Below, in pieces: positions 9,608 through 55,893 of a stretch of 64,000 bases of DNA (position 1 is the stretch's first letter; each line of letters starts with the position of its first letter). Source of the stretch: Marsupella aquatica (Eukaryota; Plantae; Marchantiophyta); NCBI GenBank assembly GCA_973895155.1, contig OZ316899.1, positions 5,211,241 to 5,275,240 on the forward strand, read 5' to 3'. The notes beneath the pieces are model-generated. The model did no database searches, had not been told where the DNA came from, and saw only the letters and a list, made by a program, of their open reading frames with translations. A program made the position numbers and the translations under genes.

Positions 9608-9615
9608 TATAAAAA
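9608..9615 (+). promoter_or_regulatory. TATA box in LTR A upstream of the LTR-encoded ORF (also at 41324-41331)
   Basis: TATAAAAA ~108 nt upstream of the ORF start codon in both LTRs. Confidence 0.55.
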
Positions 9616-9715
9616 GGGAGCCGACCCTTTGTAGTGCACCAGTCCATCAGTCCACGCGCCAACTTTGACCCCAGCTCTCTTGTTTGCTCTTAGTTGCCAC
9701 TGCTATCTCCTCTGA

Positions 9716-12096: not shown

Positions 12097-13003
12097 CGGT
12101 GGAGTATGAATAGAATAGGGTTAGGAATAGCTAAATCAGGCTATGGGGACAGGAACCTGCCCTAGTTAGAGCAGCATCGCCATGCTGTCCAACATTCGTA
12201 GGTTAGGATCTTCTAATAAGACACAGCCGTTTTTCGGCCTGACAGTCAGATTAGTTAGGACCTAAGTCACCAAATTTTTGGGCGGGAGGACACTCCGTTC
12301 CTCGGCCCTTAGTATTTAGTGACCCCTCGATAGAGGAGGGGGGGGGGTTTAGTCTCAGTATTGGACGTCCGTAGTATGTGCGAGGAGTCCCAACCTCTGG
12401 AGTGAAAGAGTACCAAGGGGAGGGTGTAAGACTAAGCTTGTTGGGCGAGTGCGGAGCCGGGCTCCGTTGTAGTGTACACCCTCGGCCTTGGACCTGTTCA
12501 CTCCAGAGCATTTGTGTCAACTAAGTGTACGCGTATGTCTCTTATGGAGTAAAATCCCTTCCCGTTATTTCCTTCGTGTAAATCGAGATTTTATGCTTGT
12601 GCGTATGTATGTGTGTGAATCTCGTGTATAGGTGCCAATGCTTGGCCGAACGCACTACCCAAGTAGTGCATGGGGTGCAGCTTGCGTGTACGTGGTTGCG
12701 AGCCCGGGTTGAGCACCCATATCATCAAAATCCGGATCAAAGGCGGACAATACGAAGGCTTAGAAGCCCTTAAGCCAGGGTCGATCCTGCTATCGATTGA
12801 GGTACGTTCCGGCGGCGGAACACAAATCATACCTAGGAGGTGTCCGTATATGACGATAGGTGCACTTAGCGCTATTTTACATAAGTTGGGTGCATTCCGT
12901 GCCTCCCTCCCTGCCCGAACCCTCATTTTGACAAAGGATGTGCCTGTTTAAGCCGAAGCCCGGAGTAAGGCCAAGGCTGACGACGTGACATAGCCTTTGT
13001 TTT

Positions 13004-13021
13004 TGGCGCTAGATGGAGGGG
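13004..13021 (+). promoter_or_regulatory. primer binding site, tRNA-Asn type
   Basis: TGGCGCTAGATGGAGGGG has one mismatch to the complement of the plant tRNA-Asn 3' end (from memory). It lies 13 nt after the LTR. Confidence 0.8.
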
Positions 13022-13119
13022 GCACTCTACGTGTAGTAGAGGGGAGACATGTGCGGGTGCACCTGGGCTGAATACACCAGGCCCGTGTGAGTTACTAACC
13101 ATCGCATGTATATGAGTAA

Positions 13120-18600: not shown

Positions 18601-18844
18601 CGACTTAGTCGCCTATTATAACTAAGGACGGACTAGTTTCCTGCCCCTCCTATAGTAACTTGCTTACCCCTAGATAACTTTGCATAACTAAATTCCCTCT
18701 TACCTCTACTAAGCTTCCCTTCTTACTTAAGTGCCCTAAACCTAGCTACTCTGATAGCACTAAAACTTTTTCCCTAACTATTTCCTCTTCTAAACGAAAG
18801 AATGTCATGTTTCTCTACACTAGCTGACACTGAGCCATCCCACA
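15662..18844 (-). repeat. element B LTR (3183 bp), 3'-most copy
   Basis: Minus strand TGTGGGATG...TTTGACA, preceded by the PPT. Candidate TATATAA at 16498-16504 (-) and AATAAA near 16345 (-). Confidence 0.97.
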
Positions 18845-18857
18845 TAGCCCCCTACTT
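18845..18857 (-). promoter_or_regulatory. PPT of B (second copy at 28191-28203)
   Basis: AAGTAGGGGGCTA directly before TG on the minus strand. Confidence 0.85.
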
Positions 18858-18884
18858 AAGTGTGCAGCGTCCCCGCAAACACAC

Positions 18885-24863: not shown

Positions 24864-24969
24864 GCCACTCACAATCACCTTCTTATCTCCCTTCTTCTCT
24901 TGAACAGCAAACCTGCAAACACACCTCCAAGTCTTGTGGCTCCACTCCAACAAAAACTGTAAAGAGTTG

Positions 24970-24987
24970 TCCCCGGCAGCGGCGCCA
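24970..24987 (-). promoter_or_regulatory. PBS of B, tRNA-Asp type (second copy at 34316-34333)
   Basis: TGGCGCCGCTGCCGGGGA has one mismatch to the Athila-type tRNA-Asp PBS TGGCGCCGTTGCCGGGGA. It lies 20 nt from the LTR. Confidence 0.85.
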
Positions 24988-25007
24988 AAAACAAGGGTGG
25001 GACTCTA

Positions 25008-28000: not shown

Positions 28001-28190
28001 GTAACTTGCTTACCCCTAGATAACTTTGCATAACTAAATTCCCTCTTACCTCTACTAAGCTTCCCTTCTTACTTAAGTGCCCTAAACCTAGCTACTCTGA
28101 TAGCACTAAAACTTTTTCCCTAACTATTTCCTCTTCTAAACGAAAGAATGTCATGTTTCTCTACACTAGCTGACACTGAGCCATCCCACA
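25008..28190 (-). repeat. element B shared middle LTR
   Basis: Flanked by a PPT on one side and a PBS on the other, with no TSD. Confidence 0.97.
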
Positions 28191-28230
28191 TAGCCCCCTA
28201 CTTAAGTGTGCAGCGTCCCCGCAAACACAC

Positions 28231-34200: not shown

Positions 34201-34209
34201 AGTGGGCAT
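28231..34209 (-). CDS. intact Gag-Pol polyprotein of B, copy 2
   Basis: Translation identical to copy 1. Confidence 0.97.
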   Translation of the reverse strand: MPTTRSQALKEASLSFNFGDQLEQPDWVDIHLQAEAEPGVGWSDTSSSTTNTSEDQEAAMVVTQRARFQYKTFHGKPKEDPDAWLEDFIGTAQANGEFDIKLTTLAGVLRGEARPWFNSLSNAIKNDWDAFKLAFLQEFRKVGEESEALIKMGEIRMGSKESVRRFLQRFQRLATKLDPRPVDSMLLAWFVASLPKKMGVSVRQSHPNTLDEAIEAAQSYRSAEISSSKSRRKKKRFAYSDSSSSSSESSSSVEDTSESESEESSSSSDSESDSEEDSEKKKKKKKKKAKRKSDQKRRASKKKPGGKHHKSATFNLVEGSTPATKEKKVMDNKMSEITNQLKALSVHFAGVQPDRRKVPVNRAHVWCVKCKSFGHTPQECQGWRNQVQYVNEESNDVYQASEVVDYFYEEAPEMVYQISGGPRTLQGRPAPPMAPQLMPGLQPRMVDQMGPQGPGGVARTTVVICWNCQKPGHYSNSCPEPRRQGQGAPYPLCAVCKREGHTTANCPIGSAAKMMIGRIEAPPPAVAKAPGEATVNFLSMEWQEEAKDGVTQVAGGENQPDLPGMETPEEEAVCYKVSTRSTRKKERVEERKKRKERKEHSTESPIEVEVGAEVQVPPAEDSDYKRDHPKLFYPKVNEEVKRQLEEMEAKEHQEAINKDLKVAKALKEKAEVEEKKETSKVPSYDIKKDVKDCLVTATVGQLIKDNPLYRRQLKEMLVGRRRRKLPKVGTPADVMMVCEDLGAPEIDVQVNGCVLSYVPVDGGSGVNIMIEATAQQLGFKKLQPTARTMRLANGARVLPVGTLTQVPTLIGGQEFLLNYLVMRPARPSTYPILIGRPWLYGAKVVSDWGKKEFRFGKPATSVSWGHDKHQGETTDELDEYDSELSDELSTKSESDEDEVYMLNMVSQWTEEEVFGEEQEQEALTSHSPLPSLSEVTSLEEVKQAETSAKESNQEDTITMAQEVDQTSKGVAQVEIKTRSNDQRLKAKHLALLKLKIKELEDQLKAANSEEDETQEDQHSSKEKEELSAENAPVYGGMRLAQLEGTFDSTMRNKMEVIRAEQYRTISVQQDKTFNLGNALGSGEEKTIQDLLGEYVDVFAWSHLDLTGVNPELGEHRIDLMLGASPVRQRQYRMNPKYSLMVKEEIDKLLEAGFIYPVLNSEWVSPIVIVPKKPGLDGKPKIRVCQDFRKLNEATKKDHYPIPFTDMVLDLVAGWEVYSFLDGYSGYNQIWIRKEDQLKTAFTTEWGIYAFRRMPFGLCNAPGMFQRLMMNIFHDYLRKFLEVFIDDFAVFGRGKDHVEHLRMTFQRCREVGLKLHPGKCFFGVEEGILLGHKVSKKGIEVDQEKVAVWMAVKFPTSVTELRGFLGCLNYYRRFIKDFAKVALPLTSMLKKGAEVEPSVERLASFQELKNRLVEAPILIAPDWSREFHVYVDVSGFCIGVVLSQLDDQNRDHPIYFASRLLAPAEKNYSPTDREALGIIYSCKKFRHYLLGYKVVFHTDHNALKYMVNKPDVTGRVARWILLLQEFDYEVRVRPGKKHGNADFFSRIEGEEDLKEVDDQFPDEDLFHVGSGGDTWYLDIIQFLLTTRLPRDLNQEEAAVFLRKIRPYLLVKGVLHKEGVDGRLRRCLEKKEISIVMRAMHEEEAGGHYASATTARKILDAGYWWPTLHKDVSLFVRGCDPCQRTGKPAHSRHHPLTTILPLAPFEKWGIDFIGPITPVTRSRRNRYILLATDYATKWVEARPTSKDNALTVARFMYQQIFTRFGPPLELVSDRGTHFLNEVVEELTNHYLIKHRKTTPYHPKANGLTERANGIIGKILNKTVAAHKTDWDDKLYSAVYSYNLAFKTTTGHSPFYLVFGQHSLVPVEFEVPTLRVSVEERMEADQSLMERAYQLEELEEIREEASKQVKKKQAQVKQHHDKKLKKPTSLLAGQLVLLYDSRYAHFPGKLHTRWLGPYVVHQVYANGSIQLATLEGEVFPTRVHHDRLKRYFNQE

Positions 34210-34353
34210 GCCACTCACAATCACCTTCTTATCTCCCTTCTTCTCTTGAACAGCAAACCTGCAAACACACCTCCAAGTCTTGTGGCTCCACTCCAACAAA
34301 AACTGTAAAGAGTTGTCCCCGGCAGCGGCGCCAAAAACAAGGGTGGGACTCTA

Positions 34354-37300
34354 TGTCAAACACTTGCCAAGGAGCTTAAGCGGCTTTTCTCCCCAAAAGA
34401 CTACCTAATACCTGCTCCATGTCATACCAGGGTCACAAAGGATTGACAAAACTTCTGAAGTGTGCTTACAATGTCCAATCACTCCATACATAAGTAGTTT
34501 CAACTCTCCACTTCTAGAGAGGTAGTCCCCTTGACTACTTTTGTACTCACCCCTTCCCCTCTCCTCTACTCCAAGGATCAGCAAGGGGGATCTCCGCTCC
34601 AAGCTGTCACCTTAGAGTAGATTCTCACACAAACACCCAAGAACCCAAAGTACTTTCCTCTTCAAGCTTAAGTCTCCTCAAGACCCTCAAAGTAGTGTTA
34701 CCCCTCAACCTTGCCCCCCTGGCCTTGGTTTGGGTCCACACATCCCCTTTGAGCCCTAGAGAAGGCTCCTCTATCTAAGGACTCTTCCTCTTGTTCTTAC
34801 TTCTTGTTAACACCACACACCAAGCAAAGTACTTTCCACCCTCAAGCTATAATCCTCTCTAAGTCTCAAAGTAATGCTATACCTTAACCTTGCCTCCTTG
34901 GCCTTGGTTTTGTACTAGCACATCCCCTTCAAGCTTAGACCAAGATTATACCATAGCATGGACTCTTCTCTTGCTCTCATATACTTCAAATGCACTCACA
35001 CTTAATGGTCACAATGAAGATTGGTAAGTCTCCTTTTATTGCATCACCTTTACAACAAAAGTTCACTACACATTCTCCACACTAAGCATGGACCACCTCT
35101 CCTTTCTCAAGCTTAGCCCTACCTTGGCAAGGTAGAGATTTCACTTAAGAGATGAGACTCCCGGTCCCTAACAAATGAAAACTTCCTCCTTATATACTAT
35201 CTCCTTCCACATCACACCAAGCTTGACCTGGGGTCCAACTATACCTCCCCCAAGTCCTCCTAACACACAAAGTCCAACTCTATAGTTCATAGCCCACCCT
35301 ACTACTTGCTATTTTGCCTCCTTCCAAGCCCTGGAATATGCCACACATGAGTGGTATGCTTTGACTTCCAAACCTACTCCCACTTATGGTCCTCCTCACC
35401 AGCTTACCAACCCACTTGAAATCTCGCAAAAAGAGTGAGTGAGTCTCAAGTTGTGCCTAGTCAAAGTTGGCCTTATTTTACTTGTAACCCCTTTACTACC
35501 CTAAGTAAACTACCCCCTATATTTACTTTTCTTAACTTGATGGCCTTACACCTTTGGCCAAAGGTAAGTACCCTTCTCTAGAGCCTAACTCAAGTGGTAT
35601 GGGTGCAAGAAAGGTCAGCCCCTAAATCTGGTATTCATTCCCCTATGCCGACTTTGGTTTGCAAGTTGTCGGGACTCCCTCGTGGCCTCGGTTAAAAATA
35701 TATTTGAGTGATTACTTTTCTGGGGTTCCACCTTCACCAGGGGGTGCCTTATCTTCCCCTAACTCAGCACAAAAAAATTTGGGCCCCAACGGATACCTCT
35801 AGCCAAAGTTATGCCCATTCTCCCAAGGCCTGTTTTTGGTGTAAAGCGGGTGTAAGCGGCGGCCCGATTACACTTACCTTACATGCCCCTTATGGGGATT
35901 CCACGTGTCATGAGGGGAGAGCACTCTCATTATACTCATGTTTCTTATGAAGAAATTGTAAGGACAGCAATGTTTGCAGCCATTTCTCTCTCGTGAATTC
36001 AATCTAAAACCACAGCATTCTCTATTGGATTCTTTCTTGTGCAGCAGTCCAGCTGATCAGCCGCCAGCCCCTCAATTTCACAGCCACCATAGCTCACAGC
36101 CAGCCTAGTCAATTTCGCAGCTAGCCCACCTCTTCAATTTTGCCGCTAGCAACACAGTCAATTTCGCAGCTAGCAGCACAGTCACATCAGCGCATTTACA
36201 GCACAACAACAGCAGATTTGAAGCACAGCAGCAGCAACCATAGCTTGATTCCTTCTCAGTCAAGCAGGTCTCTCTTCTCAATTTCGTAGCTGCCCACCTT
36301 TGCAATTTCGCAGCTAGCAGCAGCATCATTCAATTCAGCAGCATCAAGGCAGCAGCCAGCCAATTCTCATGAGCATCTCGTGCCTGATTAGTAGGAGCAC
36401 CTCTAATCTAGTGTGCAGCTGTCATAGCAGCAAGCAGCCTTCCCAATTCAAAGCCAGCAGCGATCCTAATTTGCAGCCATAGCTCTTTTCCTTCTCAGCA
36501 GCCATAGCTTCTTCAATCAGCAACAGCCCTTGCTTCTTCAATCAGCAGCAGCCATTTCAATTCAGCCGCCCTTCCTTCAATTCAGCCGCCCTTCCTTCAA
36601 TTCAGCCGCCCTTGTGCTCAATTGATTCCTCAAGTAATCATGCAGCACCTTTGGACAGCCTCCCGGTGCTTGACGTCCTCACCAGCCTCGTGCTTGCTCC
36701 TCCTTGCCTCGTGCTCGCTCCTCCTTGCCTCGTGCTCGCCGCGTGATCGTCGCCCACGCGGTTTACACTTAGAAAAAAATACATTTTTTTTTGGAAAAAC
36801 AGCATTTTGGGGCGATTTTGGACCCCCCTCCAAAACTCACACATAAGTCCAAAAGGACTTCTGAGTAGCTCCACTGATTCTATGGACATAGGACTATGTC
36901 CGGGTTTACTAAGATATAAACAAAACCCTATAACAACTTTTCTAAAATTAGGCAAAGAGGGTCAAGTCTTTATGTCTTCCAAAATTCTTCTCAACTTTGA
37001 GATGCTCCCAAAAAGTAACCAAGTGTGACAAAGTTGTCCCACAAGTTTCTAGGGATAGAGGGGACCATACTTAACCCACTTCCAAACTTGGAACCCCTAC
37101 ATTTACCCATCAGCTATTTTTCCCGGGACCCGCTATTTGGTAACTTTGATTTTTGCCAAAATACTTATAACTCCTAGGTTAAGACCCCACTTGACTTCAT
37201 ACTTTTTCAGGGTTCCCTAGGGACCTCCCAGCACCCATGGGAGAAATATCAGCCAAAAATAAGATGTCCGGTGTCGGGTCATTTTTCGGTCCCGACTTAG

Positions 37301-37536
37301 TCGCCTATTATAACTAAGGACGGACTAGTTTCCTGCCCCTCCTATAGTAACTTGCTTACCCCTAGATAACTTTGCATAACTAAATTCCCTCTTACCTCTA
37401 CTAAGCTTCCCTTCTTACTTAAGTGCCCTAAACCTAGCTACTCTGATAGCACTAAAACTTTTTCCCTAACTATTTCCTCTTCTAAACGAAAGAATGTCAT
37501 GTTTCTCTACACTAGCTGACACTGAGCCATCCCACA
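34354..37536 (-). repeat. element B LTR, 5'-most copy
   Basis: Same sequence as the other two LTRs, followed by the TSD TGTAG. Confidence 0.97.
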
Positions 37537-37541
37537 TGTAG

Positions 37542-40500
37542 TCACGGATTGGGGAAAGAAGGAGCTACGGTTCGGGACACCCACAGTACGGGTATCATGG
37601 GCAATGGACGATTACCAGGGCAAAACTCCACAGGGACCCGAGGAATATGATTTGGAGACCTCGGAGGAAGAGGAACTCAATATGATTGAACTCATCTCGT
37701 CCCTGTCCGAGGAAGATGTCTTTGGAGTTGAGGCAACCCGGGAAACACATCTCCTGAATTACCCGAAGGCTACTATTGAGTCCACCCCGAGCACCTCCAC
37801 CGCCCGGGATGAGGAAACACAAAAACAACCGATCAATACGGAGGACACGGATCCAACTAAGCAGGGCACCGATGCTGCTTCTACCAGTGCAGAGCCTCGT
37901 GACCACGAACCGGCCAAACAACCACCCGAGGCCGAAAACCTGAGACCAAGACATAAGAAACAAGTCTCCTGGGATCCGTCCATCCCACAATTGGAGGAAG
38001 TAACTCCAATCCCAAAACCAATCCCGGTTCCACCCATGTACAGAGGAGTTTGATTAGCTGAACTTGATGCGAGCCTGGACCCGAGCTTGCGGAACCAGGT
38101 TGAAGTCATCAGGAAGGAGCACTACCGGAAGTACACCATGGGGATGGATAAGTCTTTTAACCTGAGCCATGCTCTGACGGGGGAGGCGGAAAAATCTATC
38201 CAAGCTTTGCTCAAGGAATATGAAGATGTGTTTGCATGGAGCCATCACGATTTAACAGGAGTCTCCCCCGAGTTAGGAAAACACACGATCAATTTGAATC
38301 TGAGGGCCCATGCAGTACGGCAGCAACAACGTCGCATGAACCCGAGGTACTCCATCTTAGTGAACGAGGAACTTGATTGTCTCCTTGCCGCAGATATCAT
38401 CTACCCGGTAATGGCCAGCAATTGGGTCTCTCCCATCGTCATTGTACCAAAAAAGGGAGGTACGGACGGAAAACCTAAGATCCGGATCTGTCAGGACTAT
38501 CGTAAGCTGAACGACGCGACCCGAAAAGACCATTACCCGTTACCATTCACGGATATGGTTCTAGATATGGTAGCCCGAAATGAAATTTATACATTCCTTG
38601 ACGGGTATTCGGGTTATAACCAAATTTGGATTCGCCTCTCAGATCAGCTCAAAACAACGTTCACTATAGAATGGGGGACTTTCACATTTCGGAGAATGCC
38701 GTTTGGACTGTGTGACGCTCCGGCCATGTTTCAGCAACTCATGATGAATATCTTCCACGATTTCCTACGGGAATTTCTGGAGATATTTATCAACGACTTT
38801 GCCATCTTTGGAACCGTCGCCATGCACCCCGAACACCTAAGACGTACATTGCAACGATGCCGAGAGGTTAACCTCAAACTACATCCCGCCAAATGCTTTT
38901 TTGGGGTGGAGGAGGGAGTGTTACTTGGGCATCGTGTGTCCAAACGGGGTATCGAGGTGGACCAAGAGAAGGTCGCGGCCTAGATGGCGGTGGTGTTCCC
39001 GGTGGATCAAAAAGTGGTACGATCCTTCTTGGGCTGTGTAAGGTATTACCATCGGTTCATTAAAGACTTTGCTAAAATTGTGTTGCCCTTAACTGAGATG
39101 ATGAAGAAGGACGCGGTGATCGAGGAGACACCCCGAAGACGGATTGCTTTCGAAGAACTCCGTAAATGACTCACCACCGCACCTATCATGGTCACTCCGG
39201 ACTGGAATAAGGAGTTCCACGTGTATGTCAATGTGTCAGGGTTCTGTATCGGATCCGTGCTCAGTTAGCTTGACGAGGACAGACGCGACCACCCCATCTA
39301 CTTTGCTAGCCGTCAATTATTCACAACCGAAAAGAATTATTCCCCCATTGATCGAGAAGCTCTGGGAATAATCTACTCGTGTAAAAATTTCCGACACTAT
39401 CTGCTCGGCTACAAGGTCATATTCCACACGGATCATGATAGCCTGAAGTACATGGTCAACAAAGCAGACGTGACGGGACGGATAGCCCGGTGGGTGCTAC
39501 TTCTCTAGGAATTTAACTACAAAGTTCGGGTTCGGCCAGGAAAGGCACACCTCAACGCCGACTTCTTTTCAAGGCTGGGCGGCGTACCAGTCGATCAGCC
39601 AATTAATGATATTTTTCCGGATGAGGAATTGTTCCACATAGGGGCGGGGACGCCAACGTGGTACGGCTCAATAATCACCTTCCTCTTAACGGGCCGCATC
39701 CCTGATGGCATCAATCAGGAAGCCACCACTGTGTTTTTAAGGAAAGCCGGGCCTTATGTCATGATACAGGGTCACCTACATAAGGAAGGAGTTAATGGGA
39801 AGTTACAACGCTGCTTAGAGTATAAGGAAACACTTATCGTGATGCGGGCCTTGCATGAAGAAGAAGCTGGAGGCCATTTTGCGGCTATCACGACAGCCCA
39901 AAAGATTCTGGACTCGGGGTATTGGTGGCCTACGTTGCATCGGGATGTACAACGCTTCATCAAGGGTTGTGACCTGTGTCAACGGGCTGGGGCCCCGAGA
40001 CGAGCTCATCATCACCCTCTCACGTCTGTGCTTCCCTTAGCACCTTTCGAAAAGTGGATTATTGATTACATCAGGCCGTTCACTCCCGTTACCCAAAGGC
40101 GAAGATGCAGGTACATCCTGCTAGCTATAGATTACTCCACTAAGTGGGTCGAAGCGCAGGCTACGGTGAAGGACGACGCCGCAACCAGCGCCAGGTTCTT
40201 ATATGAACAGATTTTCACCCGGTTCGGACCGCCCTTAGAATTGGTAAGCGACCGTGGAACACACTTCCTCAATGACACTGTAGCCGAGCTTACGGAGCGT
40301 TACCTAGTCAAGCACCGCAAGACTACCCCGTATCATCCTAAAGCCAACGGGATGGCAGAGAGAGCCAATGGTATCATTGGGAAGATCCTCAACAAAACTG
40401 TAGCTGCGCACAAAACGGATTGGGATGATAAGTTGTACGCAGCGGTGTACTCGTATAATCTAGCTTACAAAACTACTACGAGTCACAGCCCGTACTTTCT

Positions 40501-40999
40501 CGTGTTTGGCCAACATTTGTTGGTGCCCGTCGAGTTTGAAGTACACACTCCACGGGTCAGCATTTGGGATTGCTTGCCCAAACCTGAAAGTTCGTCAGAC
40601 CGAGCTTATCAGATTGAAGCCTTAGAAGAGGCACGGCTACTAGCATCTCAACACGCCGTAAACCAGCAAGCAACTTCTAAGAAGCAGCACGACAAAGGAC
40701 TACGAAAGGTTGATGTCGTGACAGGCGACCTGGTCCTTCTGTACGATAGTAGGTACATGCAGTTTCTAGGGAAGCTTCATACCCGTTGGTTAGGGCCCTT
40801 CCTAGTCAATCAGATCTACCCTAACGGATCTTTGGAGCTTGCGACGTACGCCGGTGATTTAGTCCCCACACGAGTCAGTTACGATCGTGTAAAGAAGTAC
40901 CACCATCAAGACGACGACGCCGAAAGTGATGTTCACGAGGACGCTTCACAGTTAAGCAGGGAGCTATGTGACGCCGCTGGTACGGCGAGTAATGAGTAA
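37542..40999 (+). pseudogene. element A pol (RT, RNase H, integrase) with several premature stops
   Basis: Resumes as GGRVV|TDWGKKELRFG across the B insertion. Contains RMPFGL, HHCC and the DDE integrase. The ORF ends inside the 3' LTR. Confidence 0.92.
40954..40966 (+). promoter_or_regulatory. PPT of element A
   Basis: AAGCAGGGAGCTA before TGTGACG, aligning with the PPT region of B. Confidence 0.75.
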
Positions 41000-43990
41000 T
41001 TTGGTCTAAACCATGCTTAGCACGCGTGTTAGGGGTATCTTAGGCCGCTATTATTAGCATAATGACAGTATTTAGGTAACCATTATGAGTAGGAAATCAT
41101 TAGTCAATAAGGGGAATTCATGTTTGGACTGGCGGCGTGTCGCCATTCGCACGCCCGGGTTGCAAGCGTGGAGTCCCCCCCCCTCAGGTCCTATAACAAA
41201 CTTAGGGAAGCGGCCACTGACACGCGCTGACTCAAACCGGCGGAGTGGCCAGTACACTACAAGCGTGAACGGTTCAGCCTATAAGCAACGAGGAGACGTC
41301 GGGTGATTGACGAGCCCTCAAGGTATAAAAAGGGAGCCGACCCTTTGTAGTGCACCAGTCCATCAGTCCACGCGCCAGCTTTGACCCCAGCTCTCTCGTT
41401 TGCTCTTAGTCGCCACTGCTATCTCCTCTGAATGTCGCACACGATCCTCTCCGGTTCGGCCATTTGATTCTGGACGCAGTTCCTATCTATCGGAAGACAC
41501 TTGGCCGACTCATTGAAACACGCCAACCCGCGCCAATATGAAATCAAACGCTAGTACGAGAGAGCCATCCGCCTAGCAGGACGACACCACTATATCCTTA
41601 ACTTTGACTACCCGTCTCAGAGCGAGCTTTACCGACCAGCAGAGGTATCAGGGTACTTCTTCAACGGAGACAAATATATCGGTTTCTGGGAAGCATTGCT
41701 TCGGCTTCCGGACGAGGTCTTCAATATCTCGGGTACGATCAACTTGCAACGACATCACTTCGACCACATCCTGGCTCAGGTTCGGGCTATCATCAACAGC
41801 GAGTCTAGCACTACCCGTTTGACAAGGCTGTCTGCACTTGCTTTGGAGAACTTATACCAGCACCTGCAGAGCTTCATGGGAACTAGACCCTCAACCGCCG
41901 GCGCCGACCCACTTGACCCCATACCCGTACCCGCGCCAACGCAGACTCAGGCTCAGCCTCAGTCTCAGGCTCAGCCTAGCCAACCCCCACCGCCGATCGC
42001 CCCGCCAGTACAAGTACGCTCTGTCATCAACGCTGTGGACCTTAGCGACGATGACGAGGCTACCCCACCCTTGCTCAGGCGGCCTAGAGGAGCAAACACT
42101 CAAGGGGCCGACACTACATCATCCCCTCCCCATGTCCGGACCCAAGGAGCGGCTCCAGCAGACAACACGGTGACCGTGGCCGCCCCGGGCCCAATACTAA
42201 CGGCGGTAGCACTACCTATGGCCGATCGAGAGGATGGGAAGGTGTCACCCTCCTCGAGCCAGTCACGAGGGAAGAAGAGGAAGGAACCCGCTGCTGCATC
42301 CGGGTTACCAATGGCCACGGTAGCCGCGGCCAAGGTGACAATGCACCGCATGGGGGAAAACGTGCATAAAAAATCCTCCATCCCAAACATGCGGTGTACC
42401 TGAAAACTCAGGGATTCGAGCACCTCGCCTCTCTCCCCTGGAACACTTGCAGGTACTACGGGGAGGACATGATGGAATTCGTCAAGAATTATGACGACGC
42501 ACGTCAACACACTCGGCTGCGGGGAAGGAATATGTCCCTCACGGAAGAACGGCTCAGGATGATCTTTGGGTTACCCGAAGGTGACCACCGAGTCAAATCA
42601 TGGGCTCCCGGGGGCAAGGGAGCCAAGTACCAATCCTCGAGTTTTCCCTCTGAGGGATCAGTGGACAATGGGTTTGTGATGAGGACCTGCCTCGTCCCCG
42701 AGATAGCTGAGTGACTGGAGTTCCAAAGGTACGCCCTCCACATGATGGAACCCCGGGGGCAGATCTCTGCTGCCCAGGTTATCCAGGTTGAGAACTATCG
42801 ACCTAGGAAGTGGGCGTCGTACTTCGCTAAAAATTTCCATGAAGAGATGGAGCGGCGAAGAAAGACGCTATACATTGGCGGGAAGGCGTATTTCGCTAGC
42901 CACATCGAGATCATTCTTGAGTGGTACGCTCGGTTTGATCGACGATATCGTATGCTAACAAAAGCAAATATCATCGAATATATGCTAAAAACTCGGTGTT
43001 CGTTCCTGTGAAAGAACAAGAATGGGATGAAAAGATGTTTTAAAGTGTTTTGAGTGGTTTAGAGATGGTACTCAACATCTATAAGAAAAATAGAATCTTA
43101 AACAAAACACAAGGAATTAAAAAAATAAGAACAAAGTGACGTTTGCTATATAACAAAATCTTAGAGCTTTTAGAGGTATAGTTTAGCAATATTTAACTCC
43201 GTCACCATGTCTTAAGAAAGAGCTATGGCATTATTTGAGACGTTGATAAGTCAAATATAACCTTGCTATAACTGCTCTCTAGGTTTCCATCATAAATCTA
43301 AGTTTAAGAAGTGTCTATGCGCACAAAACCCAAGATAAGTTTCAGATTGTGTGTATAGTAGTGTGTCATTAAAATGCCTGCAACATGTTTCCTTCTTCAG
43401 CGATGCGCAATTCCAAAGAAAAACTAATGCACATTCAGTATACCACAATGGTACTTCAAATCCGTGAATTAAGAATGTCGCTACTTCTTAATCATATAGA
43501 TTTCTATTTCTTGATTTCATGCAATACTTATCTTCCAAAGATAAGTCCTTCATGTAAATACAGAAATGGACAACAAATGTTGTAGTTTGGATTAGGCACC
43601 GACCAACGGATCTTCTAATACATTCCACAAACTATATTTTTATGGGTTTTACTTCTTACGGTAATTGCAACATGCATTACCATACGAAGGAGGGGTAGAC
43701 TCCTAGCACAAGTAATCAAATTCCAAGGTATGCAAATCTTCCTTGCAAAATTGCATTACACGTACAAGGGACAAAACTCCAAGATGAGGAGATGCAAATA
43801 ACTATCCACACTGTCTCAAAATGAGACTGGTATCACAATAAGTACATGAGATCGCCCACGAGCTAAGGAGAATGAAGAGACATGCCTCTTCATTTCCTAA
43901 GTCTAAACTAAGTAAAGTAAAAGTCAACTTTGACTAAGGGCTATCAAATGGTCAAAGCTAAGTAAAAGTCTACAAAATAAAATACTAATC

Positions 43991-46239
43991 TCATACTGTA
44001 ATAGGAGGAGGGTCGACTACAAGTAGAGGGAGGCGAGCTACATAACCAAGGGCTATCTTCCCTTTGGTCCTCTGTCCCTTCAAATACTGTCGACGGAAAA
44101 GGTCCTCACGGTAACAAATCAAACAAGGCTCACTGGTCTTCTGGATGGGATGTCCATCTGGTCCGATCCAAACAAAGTAATCTGATGGCCATGGAATGTC
44201 TGGAGCTGGAAGAGGGAAAGGTGCTATGACCTTTCTACAATGATAAACCCAACTCCAACGGTTAGGAGTCTCAATCGTGGGTAATCTCAGCTTGTCGATA
44301 GGTAGCCATAGAATACCACGAGAAATCGGAACCATGTCGTAGGTGTGTGGAAAAGGGAAAGACTCACGACCAAACATAAGTGGAGGTAAAGGAGGTGCAA
44401 GGGGAGTGTGTGCGTCGATGAGTGACGTAATCATCCTATCAAACTGGGCGGGAAAGACAAAAAGAGGCTCAATGTCGGCAACAGAAGAGACAATAGGAGG
44501 CTGAGACATCAAAGGAGTAGGAGCTATAAATGGTACACTGGGAGGCTCTATAGTCTCAGGCTCAGGCTCAGTCTTGGGAATAGGCTCAGGAATAGGTTCA
44601 TCTCCTTCCATGGTAGGAGAGGGAAATGAATCATCAAGGGGTGATAGGGTGGTATCCTCAATAGAGAAAAATGGATCTGGAGGGGGTACGGATGAAGGGG
44701 GTAAAGGCTCAGGGGTATGAGATGGAGGGTGCTCAGGTGAAAATGTAGGAGGGATAGGGGAATCGAGAATAGGGGAAAGAATGGGATCAGGTAGAGGGGG
44801 TGTAGGTGAGGATGGAGGAGGGAGTGAAGGGTCAGCAATAGGTAGCTCCGGCTCATCCACATCCATAGGGTGATCAGGCTGTGGTGAAGGTGTAAGGGGT
44901 GAAACATGAGGGGGTGGGACGGTACGAGACTTGGAAAGCAAAGCACGAATGCAGTCTTGGGAATAGGCTCAGGAATAGGTTCATCTCCTTCCATGGTAGG
45001 AGAGGGAAATGAATCATCAAGGGGTGATAGGGTGGTATCCTCAATAGAGATAAATGGATCTGGAGGGGGTACGGATGAAGGGGGTAAAGGCTCAGGGGTA
45101 GGAGATGGAGGGTGCTCAGGTGAAAATGTAGGAGGGATAGGGGAATCGAGAATAGGGGAAAGAATGGGATCAGGTAGAGGGGGTGTAGGTGAGGATGGAG
45201 GAGGGAGTGAAGGGTCAGCAATAGGTAGCTCCGGCTCATCCACATCCATAGGGTGATCAGGCTGTGGTGAAGGTGCAAGGGGTGAAACATGAGGGGGTGG
45301 GATGGTACGAGACTTGGAAAGCAAAGCACGAATGCAGTCAAGTAACTGTAGAGGGGTACAACTCAAGAGTCTAGTGGCCTCATCTACCAAATGCTGGTTG
45401 AAACCAGCCACACTAGCTAGTCGCTCAGCATCACCAACAAAATCAGTCCATGGCGTGTAAGAAGTGGAAGCAACAAAAGAGGGAGAAGTCATCCCTGGTA
45501 GATCTGGTGCTGTCGTTTGCTCCACTGGAGGGGGTCTCGGAGATGTCATTGGTGGTGGAGTCAACTCTCTTGCTAACTCTGGCTGAGGTAGCTCAAAGTG
45601 TCTCGCTCTCCTCCTCCAATCGCTCAGCTCCACTGGTAACAAGCAGCCTCTCAAAAAGTAAATGTGCGCCAAGTAGGGTGTCAGATAGGTATCATCGGTA
45701 GTAGACAAGACAGCCACCTGCTTGGCAATCACCTCCAAAAGAGCTAAGGCCCAGTTGATCCTCCTCTTGCCGGTCCATGATACAATGATAGAGCTGGTCA
45801 AGTAAACCATAGCCCTGGTGGGTTTGGTCGGATGAAAGATAGGTACAAGGAATCAGAGTAGATGAGCTAACTCCCGGTTCCTGCACTGATCAATCTTCCA
45901 ACCAGACCTCCGGTCCCTGGTACCTCTAAAATAGGGGACAGTCAAGTCCTCTCCAACAGAGATAAGTCTCTCTCCCTCCTGGCTCAACTGGTACACCTCA
46001 GAAATAACGGCGGTGGTACACACATCAGCTGAACCTCTAGTAGAACTCCGAAAAGTGCCAGCTCAGGGTGGACGAAGAAAATCGGCAATGATGGACCCAT
46101 GCACTATATCCCAAGGAAGAAAAAGTAAGGAACTCAAGCCCATCTCTACCAGGTTACTAAGGAGTCTAAAGTAAGCCTTAGGACCTGGAGGTAAGGTCAC
46201 CCTGATGGCCTTACTAATTGGTAAGCTTCTGGTGGCCAT
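43991..46239 (-). pseudogene. ORF inside solo LTR C (621 aa when reconstructed)
   Basis: ATG at 46239 (MATRSLPISKAIRV) is in frame with ORF 44548-45810 through two TGA codons. Removing one 383-bp duplicate joins it to 43991-44941, giving 1866 nt = 622 codons. Confidence 0.8.
44569..45339. repeat. 383-bp tandem duplication in the Pro-rich linker of ORF C
   Basis: GTCTTGGGAATAGGCTCAGG recurs at 44571 and 44954, with CAGTC microhomology at the junction. Confidence 0.9.
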
Positions 46240-48680
46240 AGCTCAAAAAATCTGAGAAGGCTCTAGAGCTCTCCTCCTAAAAATGGTTAAGCATTGAGGC
46301 TCAAGAATGAAATCTCAGGGATCTAAGGCAGCTGCGCTACTATGGGAGAAAGAATGAACTGAAAAGAGATAGAAATGAAGGAGCTCTGATCAGGCCAAGC
46401 TCTTGAAATTGCAATTTCTTCAATTCCAAGAAATCAGAGAGCATCGATGACCCAATACTCCTCAATGTCTCATCAATAGCAGTTCAGAATCGGGGTGAAC
46501 ATTCTCTAGGCAGCTGCGCTCCTATAGCAATTGAAATGAGCTCGAATGGTGGTCCATCGAGTGAGCACTGAGGGTCGAAGCTCGCGCCCTACTGCCGGCC
46601 GCCATGGACGTCCCTCAAAGAAAAATGGAGAAAAAGGTTTGGTCCGGCGCGGTCGTCACATTAGGTTGTGGTGGGGTGGACGTCCTGGACGTCCCTACGT
46701 GGAGGCCGTCCAAGACGTCCTCAAGTTTTTCATGCGGGCCGGCGCGGAAGGAGTTGGCCGTCCTTGGCGAAAAATGGGTGCCGTCCCTGTGTAGAAGCTG
46801 TCCGAGCCGGCGCCATCTTTGTCGTCTTTGTGAGGAGGCCGTCCCGGCCGTCACCTCATTTTTGAAGCTCCTTTCAACTTCTTGCCATCTTGACGTCTAA
46901 TATGTGAAAACCAGAGTAGCCTTGACGTCTTCCAATGGTATCCTTACCCATTTGAGCTTATACTAACTTAAATTTGCTTAAAGAGCCTTATAGAAACTTT
47001 AAAATTTTAAAATTTTATGGTTTTGATACTTTAACTCTCTTTTTTAGAATAATCACCTAATTACAGACGAACCCTTCCCCGTGTCAACGTAACAAAGCTG
47101 GTCCCAGGTAGGTGCGTTTTCCCGGCCTTGGAGAGATGGCCCCAATCCAAGGCCCGAAGTCCAGCGGCCACGCAGGCTTCACCCACCCCACCTCCACAAG
47201 TAGTTGTAGCCGTGGTCGAGGAGGTACCGGATGGGTCGGTAATCGCAACCGTAGATGCAATCAACCAGGCCGGGCCAAGTATAGAAGTCGGGACAGCGGA
47301 GGCCTTACTTGAGCCCGGGTCTCCCAAAGACCCACCGGTGGCTATTCCGGAGGACCGAACATTGCTGGAGAAGGACACTCCAACCCCTTCCAACACTACG
47401 TCCCCAGGGTTGGATGTCACTGCCCCGGCCCCCGCACGTGTTGACGTCTACCCGTGCCCAACTCCGGACAGGCACAACCTGGACCACCCGGAACTCTTTG
47501 TACCGGGTACATTTCTGAATGGACTTCTGGGAGATTTCTCTCATCAAATTGCCTGGGATACCGGGGAGTTCATGGCCCGGAAGGTAGCCTATTTCTTCAA
47601 TCAGGAGTTGGTTGCCATAGTAAAGGCAGGTCGGGCCCAGTCAGAGGCCCTTCAGAGGATAGAGCGGTACCGGGTGGAGTCCGTATACTTAAAGAACGAA
47701 GTTGCAGCTCAAGAGGCTGAGCTTCTGCAACTACGACCCAAGATTGCAGCCACCGATGAGTTGTTAGCAAAGGCGCACGCCCTTACCGCCCTAGCCAAAC
47801 AGGCCAAAGTTGGGAACAAGGCCGAGATTGCACGACTCCAGAACCAGATTGATAGTTTGAAGAATCAAACCGTCATCTGGCAGAAAGACCTGGAGGAGGC
47901 CGAAGAACGAGCCTAGCGGGACACTACGGAGATAGCCACACTACAGGCCGAAGTAGCGCGGCTCCAAACCAAAGCCGAGAAGCAGGACCAGTTGGCGGGC
48001 AAGCTGACAAGCGATGCCCAGCAGCTAGAGGAGGCAGCGGAGGAGACGGACGCGGCGAAGCGAGAGAACAAATCTCTTCTAGACCAGGTCCAACTCCTCA
48101 AGGCGGACAATGACAGACTTCGTAAGCAGCGGGATGGCCGCTCCCACTCGGGCGGCTCTGGCAAGCGTGCCAGGCATTAGCGGCATAGTAGGAATAGAAT
48201 AGGGTTAGGAATAGCTAGATCAAGCTATGGGGACAGGAACCTGCCCTAGTTAGAGCAGCACCGCCATGCTGTCCAGCCTGCGTAGGTTAGGATCTTCTAA
48301 TAAGACACAGCCATTTTTTGGCCTGACAGTCAGATTAGTTAGGACCTAAGTCAGCAAATCTTCGGGCGGGAGGACACTCCATTCCTCGGCCCTTAGTATT
48401 TAGTGCACCCCTTGGTATAGGAGGGGGGGGGTTTTAGTCTCAGTATTGGACGTCCGCAGTATGTGCGGGGAGTCCCGACCTCTGGGAGTGAAAGAGTACC
48501 AAGGGGAGGGTGTAAGACTAAGCTCTCTGGGCGAGTGCGGAGCCGGGCTCCGTTGTAGTGTACACCCTCGGCCTTGGACCTGTTCACTCCAGAGCATTCG
48601 GGTCAACTAAGTGTACGCGTATGTCTCTTATGGAGTAAAATCCCTTCCCGTTATTTCCTTCGTGTAAATCAAGATTTTAT

Positions 48681-48844
48681 GCTTGTGCGTATGTATGTGT
48701 GTGAATCTTGTGTATAGGTGCCAACGCTTGGCCAAACGCACTACCCAAGTAGTGCACGGGGTGCTTGTGCGTATGTATGTGTGTGAATCTCGTGTATAGG
48801 TGCCAACGCTTGGCCAAACGCACTACCCAAGTAGTGCACGGGGT
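48681..48844. repeat. 82-bp tandem duplication in A 3' LTR only
   Basis: GCTTGTGCGTATGTATGTGTG at 48681 and 48763; single copy in the 5' LTR (~12596). Confidence 0.85.
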
Positions 48845-49158
48845 GCAGCTTGCGTGTACGTGGTTGCAAGCCCGGGTTGAGCACCCATATCATCAAAATC
48901 CGGATTGAAGGCGGACAATACGAAGGCTTAGAAGCCCTTAAGCCAGGGTCGATCCTGCTATCGATTGAGGTACGTTCCGACGGTGGAACACAAATCATAC
49001 CTAGGAGGTGTCCGTATATGACGATAGGCGCACTTAGCGCTATTTTACGTAAGTTGGGTGCATTCCGTGCCTCCCTCCTTGCCCAAACCCTCATTTTGAC
49101 AAAGGATGTGTCTGTTTAAGCCGAAGCCTAGTGTAAGGCCAAGGCTGACGACGTGACA

Positions 49159-51811: not shown

Positions 51812-53936
51812 GACCGCATTGCTTCCAGACAAGGTTTACCATATCCCGGGCATGATAGACTTGCAGCCGCACCACTACGACCATATCCCCGCCCAGGTTC
51901 AAGCCTCCATAGATAGTCAGTTTGGCCCTGCCCAAACAAGCGAGACTCCTATCTTAACGTCACTTGACTTCCCCAGGGACTTCCTGAATCTAATGGCGCC
52001 TTCCCAAGCTGCAACTGGCGCCAACCCATCCGTGTCTGCACCAACACCGCCTCGGCCTCAGCCGAGCCGATCTCCACCAACGGTCGCACCACCTCTCTGA
52101 GTGCAATCCATGGTGAATGCGGTGAACATTAGCTCCAAAGACAAGGAGGCCCATCCTCCCCTGAACCTGCAGCCCCTTTGGCCACGGTTGCGATGGCCAA
52201 GCTGACCATGCATCGCATGTGGGAGAATGTTCACAAGAACATCCTCCACCCCAAGCATGCATGCTACCTGAAGCCCCAAGGGTTTGAGCACCTTGCCTCT
52301 CTCCCTTGGAATGGAAGCAGGTACTACAGGCAGGATATGACAAAGTTCATTCAGAACTTCAACGAGGCCCGCCAACAAACCCGAGCGCATGGGAGAGTGA
52401 TGTGTCTCAATGAGGCACGTCTGAAGATGATTTTTGGCCTACCCAAGGGGCTAAACCGGGTAGAGTAGCGGGATCCTAGGGGCAAGGGAGCTAAATACTA
52501 GTCCTCTAGCTTCCCGACCCAAGGGAGCAGTGGACAACGGATTCTTGATGAGGACGTGCCTCACCCGGAGGTAGCAAAACATCTGGAGTTCCAGCGGTAT
52601 GCCCTCCACATGATGGAACCACGGGGCAAAATATCCGCCGCCCAGGTCATACAAGTAGAGAACTTTTGGCCTAGGAGGTGGGCGTCCTTTGTCAAGAAGT
52701 TCCACAAGGAGATGGAGTGGAGAAGGAAGACCTTATACCTTGGCGGAAAGGCGTACTTTGCAAGCCACATCGAGATCATCATCAAGTGGTACGCCCGTTT
52801 TGACCGCCAAAGCCTCCCCCGTAGCAACAAGACAGAATTGACCCCATCAAAGTGGGTATTCCTGGCTCAGGAGAGGCGACCATAGCCTAAAGCCCAAATC
52901 CTGGCAGCAGTAGGACCTGCTTCCCCGACCCCACAACCAGCCGCTACCGCCCCGCCAAGAGTACCCGTGGACGCAGTTTTTGCGACCTTGGACGCGATCA
53001 ATCAGGTCAATGCAATCAAAGTCGGATTGGCTGAGGCCATACCCGAATCCAATACTACGGTGGCCGAGGAGATCCTGCCACCCCCCATGGCTGTGCAGGA
53101 GAACCGCCTAGCTCCAGTGGAACCAGCCCCTTCGACCGACTTATCTCAAGGGCTGGATGTTTCCACTCCTACTCCCGCGCGGTCTGGGGTCTGCCCATAC
53201 CCAAATCCATATGGGCATAGTCTGGACCACCCAAAACTCTTTGCACCGGGCATGTTTTTTGAACGGGTTGTTGGGAGATTTCTCTATACAAATCGCACGG
53301 GATACCAGGGAACACATGGCACGGAAGGTGGCCTACTTCTTCAACCAGGAGTTGGTTGCGGCTGTAAAGGCAGGACATGCGCAGGCTGAGACAGTGCAGA
53401 GAATAGAGCGGTACCGGGTTGAGTCTGCCTACCTGAAGGACAAAGTGGTGGCCCTAGAGACTGAACTCCAACAACTGCGACCTCTGGTAACGGCCACGGA
53501 GGATCAGGTTGCCAAGGCCAAGGCCCGGGCAGCCTTAGCAGAGCAGGCCAGGCTCGGAAAGGATGTTGAGATCGCACGGCTTTGGACCAAGATTGACGGT
53601 TTGAAGGGACAAGCCATCATTTTGCAGAAGGATCTGGAGGAAGCTGACTCTCAGTCTCATTGAGACGCAACCGAGATAGACACCCTGAAGACAGAGGTGG
53701 CGTGGCTTCAAGGGGAAGCCACAAAGCAGGCCCAATTGGTGGATAAGCTGACGAGCAACGTCCAGCAACTGGAGGAGGCATGCCAGGAGACCACGGAGGA
53801 GACGGACGCGGCAAAGCGAGAGAACAAATCTGTGCTGGATCAGGTCCAGCTACTCAAGCAAGATGCTGACAGGCTCAAGAGGCAGCGGGATAGACGCTCC
53901 CACTCGGGCGGCTCTGGCAAGCGTGCCAAACATTAG
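51812..53936 (+). pseudogene. LTR-encoded accessory ORF, diverged copy in LTR D
   Basis: VHKNILHPKHACYLKPQGFEHLASLPWN, LEFQRYALHMMEPRG, MARKVAYFFNQEL and HSGGSGKRAKH-stop all match the A ORF. Confidence 0.85.
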
Positions 53937-54818
53937 CGGCGGAGTAGGATTAAAACAGAGTTAGGAGTAGCTAAATCGGGCTATAGGGACAAGCGCCTGC
54001 CCTAGTTAAAGCAACGATGCCATATTGTCCAACCTACGTAGATTAGAATCTTCTAATAAGACAAGCCATTTTCCGCCCTGACAACCAGCTTAGTTAGGAT
54101 CTTAGTTTTGGGCACGAAGCCACTCTGGTCCTCAACCCTTAGTATTTAGTGCACCCCTTGGTAGAGGCAAGGGGTTTTTAGTCTTAGAGTTGGGCATCCG
54201 CGGTATGTGCGGGGATTCCCGACCTCTGTGAGTGAAAGAGTACCAAGGGAAGGGGGTAGGACTAAGCTTGTTGAGCGAGTGCGGAGCCGGGCTCCGTTGT
54301 AGTGTACACCCTTGGCCTTGGACCTGTTCATTCAAGAGCTTTTGGGTCAACTAAGTGTATGTTTATGTCCACCTGTGTAGTAAAATCCTTTCCCATTATT
54401 TCCTTTGTGTAAATTGAGATTGTATGCTTGTGTGTGTGTATGTGTGAATCTCGTGTATGGGTGCCAACGCTTGGCCGAACGCACTACCCAAGCCGTGCAC
54501 GGGGTGCAGCTTGCGGGTAAGTGGTTGCGCGCCCGGGTTGAATGCCCGTATCATCAAATCCGGATCGAAGGCGGACCACACAAAGGCTTAGAAGCCCGTA
54601 AGCCGGGGTCAATTCCGCTATCGACTAAGGTACGTTCCGGCGGCAGAACACAAATCATACCTAGGAGGTGTCCGTAAGTAACAGTAGATGCACTTAGCGC
54701 TACTTTATGGGAGTTAGGTGCATTCTGTGCGTCCCTCCCTGCCCGAACCCTCATATTTACGAAGGATGTGTCTGTCTAAGCCGAAGCCCGGGTTAAGGCC
54801 TAGGTTGACAACGTGACA
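51812..54818 (+). mobile_element. LTR D: left-truncated, diverged A-family LTR
   Basis: Colinear with LTR A from ~9975 to its end, ending ACGTGACA. No PBS follows; copia RT sequence follows instead. Confidence 0.88.
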
Positions 54819-54941: not shown

Positions 54942-55893
54942 GGATCAGGCCACTCCAAGTCCAACTCTGGCGGATCTAGCAAGTATGCCAGACATTAGCG
55001 GCGAGATAGGTTTAGGATAGAGTTAGGGATAGGATAGTTAGGCGATAAGGACAAGCGCCAAAACTAGTTAGCGATGCAGTCCTATCCAACCAATCTTCGT
55101 AGTTAGAATCTTAGAATAAGACACTCCGTTTTACGGCCTGACAGTTAGCAGAGTTTAGTATTTGGGATAGCTTAGATTTGAGCACGTGCTTGGTCCGGAC
55201 CCCGGCTCTTGGTATTTAGTGCACCCCCCAGTAGAGACAAGGGGGATTTTAGTTTCAAAACCAAGTATCCGCAGGATGTGCGGGGAGTCCCGGCCTTTGT
55301 GAGTAAAAGATACCAAGGAGGGAGGGTACGACTAAGCTCGTTGGGCGAGTGCGGAGCCGGGCTCCATTGTAGTGTATGCTGCTCTACCGTTGGGCCTATT
55401 TACTCAAGAGATGTCGAGTCAACCGTGTATATGTGTATGACAGATTCTGAAGTAAAGTCTTTTCCCACCATTTCCTTCGTGTAAACCAAGATTGTATTGC
55501 GTGAGTTCAGTTGCATTTATGAATCTTGTATATGGGTAGAGAATGCTTGGCCAAACGCATCATTCGAGCCGTGCATGGGGTGTAGGCTACGGATAGTGGT
55601 TGCGGGCCTAGGTTGGATACCCGTATTATTGGATTCGGATCGGAGGTGGACAGTACGAAGGCTTAGAAGCCCTTAAGCTAGGGTCGATCCAGCTATCGAC
55701 TTAAGGTACATTTCAGTGACAGAACACAAACTATACCCATGACATTTCTATATGAAGGAATAGGTGCACTTAGCGCTAGATTACGGAATAATGTTCAATT
55801 TGCACATCCCTTCTTGCCCGAACCCTCAAAACTAATGAAGATTATGCCCGTCTAAGCCAAAATCCTTGCAAGGACGAAGCTTATGGCGTGACA
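54942..55893 (+). repeat. LTR E: right part of a more diverged A-family LTR
   Basis: Begins with the ORF tail SNSGGSSKYARH-stop (54998). Shares GAGTGCGGAGCCGGGCTCC and GAAGGCTTAGAAGCCCTTAAGC with A and ends GCGTGACA. Confidence 0.85.

Follow-up and report, generated by a model that had tools for sequence, protein, structure and literature searches.

A long open reading frame inside the LTRs of a Ty3/gypsy retrotransposon, with past purifying selection and a predicted VANC21/plant-mobile-domain fold

The closest described counterparts of the open reading frame (ORF) studied here are the extra ORFs of Tat retrotransposons that encode a plant mobile domain (PMD) followed by a coiled coil (Ogre, lineages III–V; Ustyantsev 2015, PMC4408406). 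The PMD is present in 57% of Ogre (PMC6317226); the first eORF was reported from lineage III of gymnosperms, and the Tat-like elements of mosses had none (PMC4408406). We analysed a 64,000-nucleotide stretch of DNA (the window), a nest of plant transposons, in which a Ty3/gypsy element (A) carries an ORF of ~875 codons wholly within its LTR. Like the Tat ORFs, it is an accessory ORF of a non-chromovirus-type element, encodes a globular domain with a PMD/VANC fold (predicted here) and then a coiled coil, and bears the mark of purifying selection. The Tat ORFs lie in the internal region, whereas this one lies inside the LTR, has an extra conserved N-terminal domain (N-domain) and gives no PF10536 match; element A also lacks an additional RNase H, and its host is likely a liverwort.

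The second counterpart is VANC of the VANDAL Mutator-like transposons (VANC21, PDB 9LNJ/9LNK; available text of PMC5735166), also a transposon accessory protein with a coiled coil and a conserved domain between fast-evolving linkers, whose structure is the closest found to the modelled domain, aligned over its whole length (Z 7.1, below 8). According to the same text, VANC proteins, which contain DUF1985, bind to short sequence motifs and render the elements that encode them hypomethylated. The accessible part of PMC13547354 describes VANC as dicot-specific and as a structural homologue of the PMD protein MAIN, with modelled oligomerisation through coiled coils. VANC is borne by a DNA transposon (VANDAL) and carries DUF1985/DUF287, whereas the present ORF sits in the LTR of a retrotransposon, shares 10% identity with VANC21 and has no DUF1985/DUF287 match. 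The target motifs of VANC are in tandem, and no such array of 8–9-mers was found in the LTR here; binding and demethylation by the LTR protein are putative.

Other systems resemble the locus in position. The Athila env-like ORF (PF03078) and the Putative plant transposon protein (PF20167) are sense ORFs at the RNA 3′ end, but here there was no PF03078 match and no transmembrane stretch, and a copy of the ORF occurs in each of the two LTRs. The U3 genes MMTV sag and HIV nef (available part of PMC12789967) are whole LTR ORFs downstream of the polypurine tract (PPT) and are copied to both ends, but they belong to animal retroviruses and encode unrelated proteins; the present ORF is much longer, and we infer its U3 position. 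ORF0 of Retrosat2/RIRE3/RIRE8 is an extra ORF of plant Ty3/gypsy elements with LTRs >3 kb, and its Retrosat2-type values (Ka 0.26, Ks 1.65) are near those of the LTR ORF, but it lies upstream of gag-pol, is grass-specific and has no VANC/PMD link reported in the available part of the source (PMC3485330). Additional ORFs of plants are described as internal in the accessible text of PMC7264820, and the accessible parts of PMC12885004 and bioRxiv 10.64898/2026.08.24.746577 added nothing on LTR ORFs. No case of a plant LTR-internal ORF was met in the literature searched, a partial coverage to which the element tables of Neumann 2019 could add some. On the modelled structure, the ORF protein resembles a VANC or PMD–coiled-coil accessory protein in fold and layout; judged by sequence profiles and element type, it is a member of neither VANC nor PF10536. 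Extra ORFs with a PMD and a coiled coil are already known; what is new is that this one lies within the LTR, is predicted to have a VANC-like fold and probably comes from a liverwort.

Element A and its LTR ORF

Element A (9248..49158, + strand) is a complete Ty3/gypsy LTR retrotransposon with TG..CA ends, target site duplication (TSD), primer binding site (PBS) and PPT. The 5-bp TSD, ACTAC, flanks both ends (9243–9247 and 49159–49163), and the LTRs, ~4 kb long, begin with TGTGACG and end with GTGACA. The 5′ LTR (9248..12990, +, 3743 bp) has an internal deletion in linker 2 of the ORF. The 3′ LTR (40967..49158, +) is split by an insertion, F; only this LTR has a ~82-bp tandem duplication in its non-coding tail (48680–48846). 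Both gag-PR (13381–15687, +) and RT-RH-INT (~38054–40940, +) are decayed, and the order gag, PR, RT, RH, INT is that of Ty3/gypsy. The PBS (TGGCGCTAGA..., 13004..13021, +) lies 13 nt behind the 5′ LTR and is of non-Met type, presumably tRNA-Arg. The PPT (40950..40966, +) abuts the integrase upstream of the 3′ LTR. A T-rich spacer of 13–20 nt separates the LTR end from the PBS in A (12991–13003) and in a nested element, B (34341–34353), and the PBS types differ, TGGCGCTAGA in A and TGGCGCCGCT in B.

A Pfam scan found no chromodomain in A, INT running up to the PPT, and translation with a Pfam scan found no additional archaeal-type RNase H (aRH), RH continuing straight into INT. By its sequence, lacking a chromodomain and having a non-Met PBS, A falls on the non-chromovirus side (OTA/Phygy/Selgy). 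It does not have the aRH by which Neumann 2019 recognises Tat; liverwort Tat Z1/Z2 elements without aRH are described in the available part of PMC10508981, and given such members it is possible that A belongs to Tat Z1/Z2. Among the 120 matches listed for the A integrase, the best named relatives were from Calypogeia fissa, Riccia sorocarpa and Marchantia, which makes a liverwort host likely.

Element A was inserted into a minus-strand LINE (~5700–9247 and 49159–~51815; ORF1 with DUF4283/zinc knuckle, ORF2 with endonuclease-RT), whose 5′ end adjoins the truncation point of an LTR described below (D). Nested inside A is element B (15662–37537, −; TSD CTACA), a tandem arrangement of two internal regions and three LTRs of 3184 bp. 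The repeated copies show 100% identity over 12.5 kb, and each holds an open 2039-aa gag-pol; either B is a tandem element that arose very recently, or the assembly has duplicated it. B is intact, its integrase is 69% identical to that of A, and its 3.2-kb LTR does not contain this ORF; therefore the gene is accessory and dispensable in the clade. Short dispersed repeats occur elsewhere in the window, one direct (78%, 54826–54938 and 60608–60720) and one inverted (94%, 4635–4831 and 59854–60050).

Because the PPT follows the integrase immediately and precedes the 3′ LTR, the ORF is inside the LTR, between the TG and CA ends and in both LTRs. The copy in the 3′ LTR (A3′, +) runs from an ATG at 41432 to 42945 and, beyond insertion F, from 47066 to a stop at 48178–48180. 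The copy in the 5′ LTR (A5′, 9716..12096, +) has a decayed start codon, stops and frameshifts, and its central domain (10655–11224, +) is stop-free. About 890 non-coding bases follow from the stop to the LTR end. The ORF comprises the N-domain (~125 aa), a low-complexity linker 1 with a basic RGKKRK motif at its end, a central domain (~190–240 aa), a Pro/Thr-rich linker 2 and a heptad-rich tail. No hydrophobic stretch of membrane length was found in four pieces covering the ORF (highest 19-residue hydropathy 1.49); the transmembrane segment by which env-like ORFs are recognised is missing. The best TATA match, TATAAAA (9608..9614, +), is ~360 bp into the LTR and ~105 nt upstream of the ORF start, and from this position we infer a promoter.

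LTR D (51816..54818, +) belongs to a sister subfamily, is 5′-truncated and ends in ..GTGACA as in A; no PBS was found behind it, and it is a solo LTR or a 3′ LTR remnant. Its ORF remnant (51816..53936, +) retains the end of the N-domain, linker 1 with a deletion, the central domain (~52177–52900, +), linker 2, the coiled coil and the stop codon (53934–53936, +). Everything 5′ of ~51816 is missing and was not found elsewhere within the window. A third subfamily is represented by the 3′ part of LTR E (54945..55893, +), which contains the last ORF codons and the stop and is 72–73% identical to A and D.

At 10654/42369, one base that D has is missing from both A LTRs, a common frameshift. The earlier note's remark that D is in frame at this site is true locally, but D is not intact: it has five in-frame stops (52098, 52466, 52499, 52883 and 53661), a ~220-nt frameshifting deletion in linker 1, a compensating pair of frameshifts (52516/52563) and one shift at 53253. 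Every ORF copy in the window, D included, is broken. Contigs from all four public runs, which cover two coded organisms and of which two may be from the source itself, mapped to the LTR in thousands and included the longer form at the shift site of A; therefore the ORF family is high-copy, and the shift appears from the sequences to be a lesion of A's sub-lineage, carried by A into both LTRs. Programmed frameshifting at the A-run of A was set aside because D, P0003 and contigs in the four runs read through the site.

Codon-level comparison of LTRs A and D

The excess of third-position changes reported in the earlier note was borne out: D and A differ at 165, 113 and 297 first, second and third positions (52% third, chi-square p = 4e-21). 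The five synonymous changes that it quoted (ATT/ATC, GCC/GCA, GTA/GTG, TAT/TAC and AAT/AAC) are present (A3′ 47545–47607 against D 53289–53351), and its quoted replacement, EFVKNYDDARQHTR against KFIQNFNEARQQTR, was located at A5′ 10760 and D 52343. A3′ and D were compared over 636 aligned codons, codons ≤3 nt from a gap being excluded. At the 481 of these that are alike in both A LTRs, the D differences were 108, 75 and 211 by position.

The NG86 method gave dN 0.236, dS 1.007 and dN/dS 0.23 for A3′ and D (bootstrap 95% CI 0.18–0.29), and dN/dS 0.25 for A5′ and D (555 codons). Between A3′ and D, dN/dS was below 1 in every part, ranging from 0.14 in the central domain and 0.23 in the coiled coil to 0.38 in linker 2 and 0.53 in linker 1. 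The N-domain remnant (35 codons) gave 0.23 with a wide interval (CI 0.08–0.62) and a non-significant position bias (p = 0.26). With CG/CHG sites masked, K was 0.174 at 0-fold sites (826 sites) and 0.945 at 4-fold sites (141 sites; Fisher p = 3e-19); transversions only gave 0.084 and 0.248, respectively (p = 2e-7). The linkers are the most variable parts, as had been proposed, with 62 of 138 residues identical, against 324 of 455 in the central and coiled-coil parts (p = 3e-8). The replacements had also been called conservative, which holds only on average (BLOSUM62 mean −0.15, against −1.17 and −0.78 in shifted frames): of the 223 replacements, only 38% have a positive score.

In the shifted sense frames of A3′ and D, dN/dS was 1.14 and 2.12, and in the antisense registers 1.17, 2.19 and 0.37; the register at 0.37 has its third positions in common with the ORF and contains 18 and 22 stops, against 2 and 6. 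Codon periodicity was absent from the non-coding LTR end (p = 0.5–0.6). In 100 neutral simulations with a methylation-biased spectrum derived from the A5′/A3′ differences, the ratio ranged from 0.61 to 1.00 and exceeded the observed 0.23 every time; none produced fewer than 35 stops, against 8 observed.

Since insertion, A5′ and A3′ have diverged by K 0.054 (masked, 0.016). The ratio of 0-fold to 4-fold divergence between them was 0.78 (p = 0.39), and 13 of the 100 neutral simulations gave a ratio no higher than the observed one; this divergence is compatible with neutrality. As D and A are constrained and A5′–A3′ shows no significant constraint, selection acted on transposing ancestors; on these comparisons, purifying selection on the ORF is historical. 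Selection at the protein level implies translation of the ORF in these ancestors of A and D. The earlier claim of a translated and selected ORF therefore applies to those ancestors, and on this evidence does not extend to any present copy. Homologues and fold provide further, independent evidence for a real gene.

Relatives and predicted fold of the central domain

A full HMMER scan found 41 representative relatives of the central domain at E ≤ 0.001, 20–61% identical; one of them, a G5-repeat protein, is spurious, and three also have the N-domain, in the same order. Conserved positions in the family are H7, W24, R78, N100-G-F/Y, C107, R115, F118, R120, W148 and H178. In Pfam, the central domain and N-domain of the query matched no family, including DUF1985, DUF287, PMD, Athila ORF1 and Transposase_28, and none of 39 aligned members matched PF10536. 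PF20167 matched two relatives weakly (E 0.059 and 0.0078), with scores well short of the 45-bit cut-off. A word-index search found no homologues among longer proteins, profile searches of PDB sequences found nothing relevant and missed VANC21, and central-domain patterns gave no loci in viral and metagenome contigs.

An AlphaFold2 model of the central domain, from an alignment of the query and 38 of the 41 relatives, reached pLDDT 94.1 and pTM 0.88; the N-domain model (4 sequences, pLDDT 50) was too poor for a fold search. Foldseek ranked VANC21 with DNA first (TM 0.50) at a non-significant E of 1.4, the other listed rows having TM ≤0.19. VIA-align superimposed 179 of 190 residues on VANC21 (rmsd 3.9–4.0, 10% identity) with a Z of 7.1, which is below 8, could arise by chance and lies in the range that the tool deems common for models without a clear match. 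A Foldseek-independent search of 48,161 solved chains also placed VANC21 first, the next row having Z 2.8, with no PMD structure among the listed rows. No match was found in a viral fold library at E ≤ 0.001. Language-model neighbour clusters at 0.87 contained DUF1985 (13% of members) and PMD (20%), as leads only. The central domain is thus predicted to have the VANC21/plant-mobile-domain fold, and a true remote relationship to VANC21 is, on the model, quite probable, because the match extends over the full domain, has no close second and fits the DUF1985/PMD leads. MAIN has the VANC/PMD fold and yet promotes silencing (available part of PMC5418596); therefore a shared fold shows no function. 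In a search for VANC-like target-motif arrays, no 8–9-mer was found at three or more copies in the non-coding parts of the LTR, except C runs.

Function, layout and entry into the LTR

We see an even chance that the ORF is an LTR accessory gene, once under purifying selection and with a predicted VANC21/PMD-like fold, whose product is likely a nuclear, oligomeric, DNA- or chromatin-binding trans regulator. The odds are similarly balanced that a nuclear oligomer made from LTR-internal transcripts would bind the DNA or chromatin of its own element and favour expression in trans. The ORF would lie in U3 with its own promoter (TATA at 9608), and the genomic RNA would begin after it, at a second TATA-like motif, TATTTAG (12313..12319, +), which follows the ORF stop, is the same in A, D and E (in D at 54143) and is from its sequence a candidate promoter of the genomic RNA. 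The ORF would remain the 3′-most gene of the RNA, the conserved ~880-bp tail would be the old LTR, and every LTR, even a solo one, would form a complete transcription unit. Individual copies, A among them, could transpose with a broken ORF, since other copies would supply the protein; this trans action is supported by the one frameshift common to both A LTRs and by the longer form in the contigs of the four runs. Judging from VANC, the protein would most likely act in anti-silencing, relieving the silencing of cognate LTRs.

The non-coding tail differs at 137 of 877 sites between D (53937..54818, +) and A3′, against 149 of 260 at 4-fold and 226 of 1168 at 0-fold sites. Within it lie poly(A)-like signals and a GT-rich tract, and the tails of A, D and E (12097–12990, 53937–54818 and 54999–55893) have invariant blocks in common, among them CGAGTGCGGAGCCGGGCTCC. 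No Rfam match was found in the LTR, and consensus folding of the three tails did not support a conserved RNA structure (covariation term +4.3). The nearer the 3′ end, the lower the synonymous divergence (rho −0.17, p = 0.001), and recombination between subfamilies could in part account for the conservation of the tail.

With a domain profile of 37 sequences (the query and 36 of the 41 matches, five short or spurious ones excluded), a search of the window and of 17 loci related in integrase gave two further full-length matches, insertion F and locus L002. Insertion F (42946–47065, −, 4.1 kb, 5-bp duplication GACGA) matched at 20.9 bits, against 2.6 for the best of 500 shuffles (HHalign 92%). 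Its ORF (from an ATG at 46239, −) contains a distant homologue of the central domain (~46146–45696), a Pro-rich linker with a 387-bp tandem duplication (44569–45339) and a different C-terminal part without a Pfam match. F has no gag or pol and is probably a solo LTR of another, unrelated family, with termini TG..TA rather than TG..CA; its sequence makes it probably a second LTR-like carrier of the domain.

L002, one of the 17 loci, matched at 14.8 bits, against 4.4 for the best shuffle (HHalign 59%). This Ty3/gypsy element, assembled as a circle of 10.3 kb, has a short LTR and an integrase 43% identical. From ~700 to 9740, its gag, pol and extra ORF form one stop-free frame of ~3000 codons, in which the domain and coil lie directly behind the integrase and ahead of the functional PPT at 9830. 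An identical 14-nt PPT is found at 7001, upstream of the ORF. This duplicated PPT suggests how the ORF might have entered the LTR: plus-strand priming could have shifted to a PPT upstream of a formerly internal ORF, which would draw the ORF into U3. The strong conservation of the non-coding tail relative to synonymous sites agrees with such a shift, as do its TATTTAG motif, poly(A)-like signals and GT-rich tract. The route is based on one of 17 loci and its direction is unrooted; a second copy of the PPT of A was not found at the proposed old LTR border (best 11/17).

The fusion to integrase in L002 also suggests the main rival to a trans regulator, namely that the same gene and fold had another job, as a chromatin tether of the integration complex or as an RNA or particle scaffold through the coiled coil. 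We hold such an integration or particle role to be possible, though on the unlikely side. The ORF of L002, in frame with gag-pol behind the integrase, is where a targeting domain would be expected, PMD function in Tat elements is left unsettled by PMC4408406, and no VANC-like array of 8–9-mers was found; but the ORF of A stands apart from pol with its own TATA box and start and is apparently dispensable in cis, and the sole structural match is a sequence-specific DNA-binding anti-silencer.

A different layout, compatible with either function of the protein, would have the genomic RNA start at the TATA box at 9608, so that the ORF is the first cistron in a very long R/U5, like a 5′ ORF of Ogre transferred to the LTR. 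That TATAAAA is the best match, ~360 bp into the LTR, and sense PMD–coiled-coil ORFs at the 5′ end are known in Tat lineage IV (PMC4408406). Against such a layout stand the strong-stop DNA that it would require, as long as ~3.6 kb, the presence in the tail of a separate conserved TATA-like motif together with poly(A)-like signals and a GT-rich tract, and the place of the L002 homologue, 3′ of pol; it is a tentative reading, of about the same low likelihood as the integration or particle role.

A true envelope-like membrane protein for cell-to-cell spread is very improbable: a sense ORF 3′ of pol on the RNA, with a coiled coil, has the position of env-like ORFs (available text of PMC7264820), but its hydropathy maximum, its basic RGKKRK motif, a fold matching a nuclear DNA-binding protein and the lack of a viral fold match at E ≤ 0.001 speak against it. 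There is next to no probability that the codon pattern arose artificially, from methylation-driven mutation, from the alignment or from an antisense frame overlapping the ORF: CG/CHG transitions make up 119 of the 174 A5′–A3′ changes, the naive A5′–A3′ ratio is 0.5–0.7 and one antisense register stands at 0.37, but the masking, transversion, simulation, antisense and non-coding controls refuted it, the signal surviving masking and transversion-only counts, simulations never falling below 0.61, the 0.37 register having the ORF's third positions plus its 18 and 22 stops and the non-coding control being flat, and 41 protein relatives and a confident fold stand against it as well.

Purifying selection on an extra ORF of a retrotransposon is by itself ordinary. 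The position of this ORF is unusual, since reviews and surveys otherwise place plant extra ORFs in the internal region; with a whole ~875-codon gene inside the LTR, solo LTRs retain the gene. The fold is unusual too. The function of PMD-type extra ORFs has been described as an open question (PMC4408406), as has which is older, the Gypsy PMD or the genic PMD (PMC4408406; available part of PMC5418596). A bolder version of the trans-regulator reading, to which we give a rather low probability, is that an early-land-plant Ty3/gypsy lineage brought a VANC-like, sequence-specific anti-silencing gene into its LTR, each LTR becoming a cassette of promoter, regulator and target; if true, the VANC/PMD fold was in retrotransposons long before angiosperm MAIN and VANC, and a retrotransposon origin would be favoured for both. 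As modelled, a profile-invisible domain of a likely liverwort element resembles VANC21, the one transposon anti-silencer with a solved DNA-bound structure, and this resemblance offers a direct test (DNA binding, methylome) and may give the question of PMD origin a much older branch.
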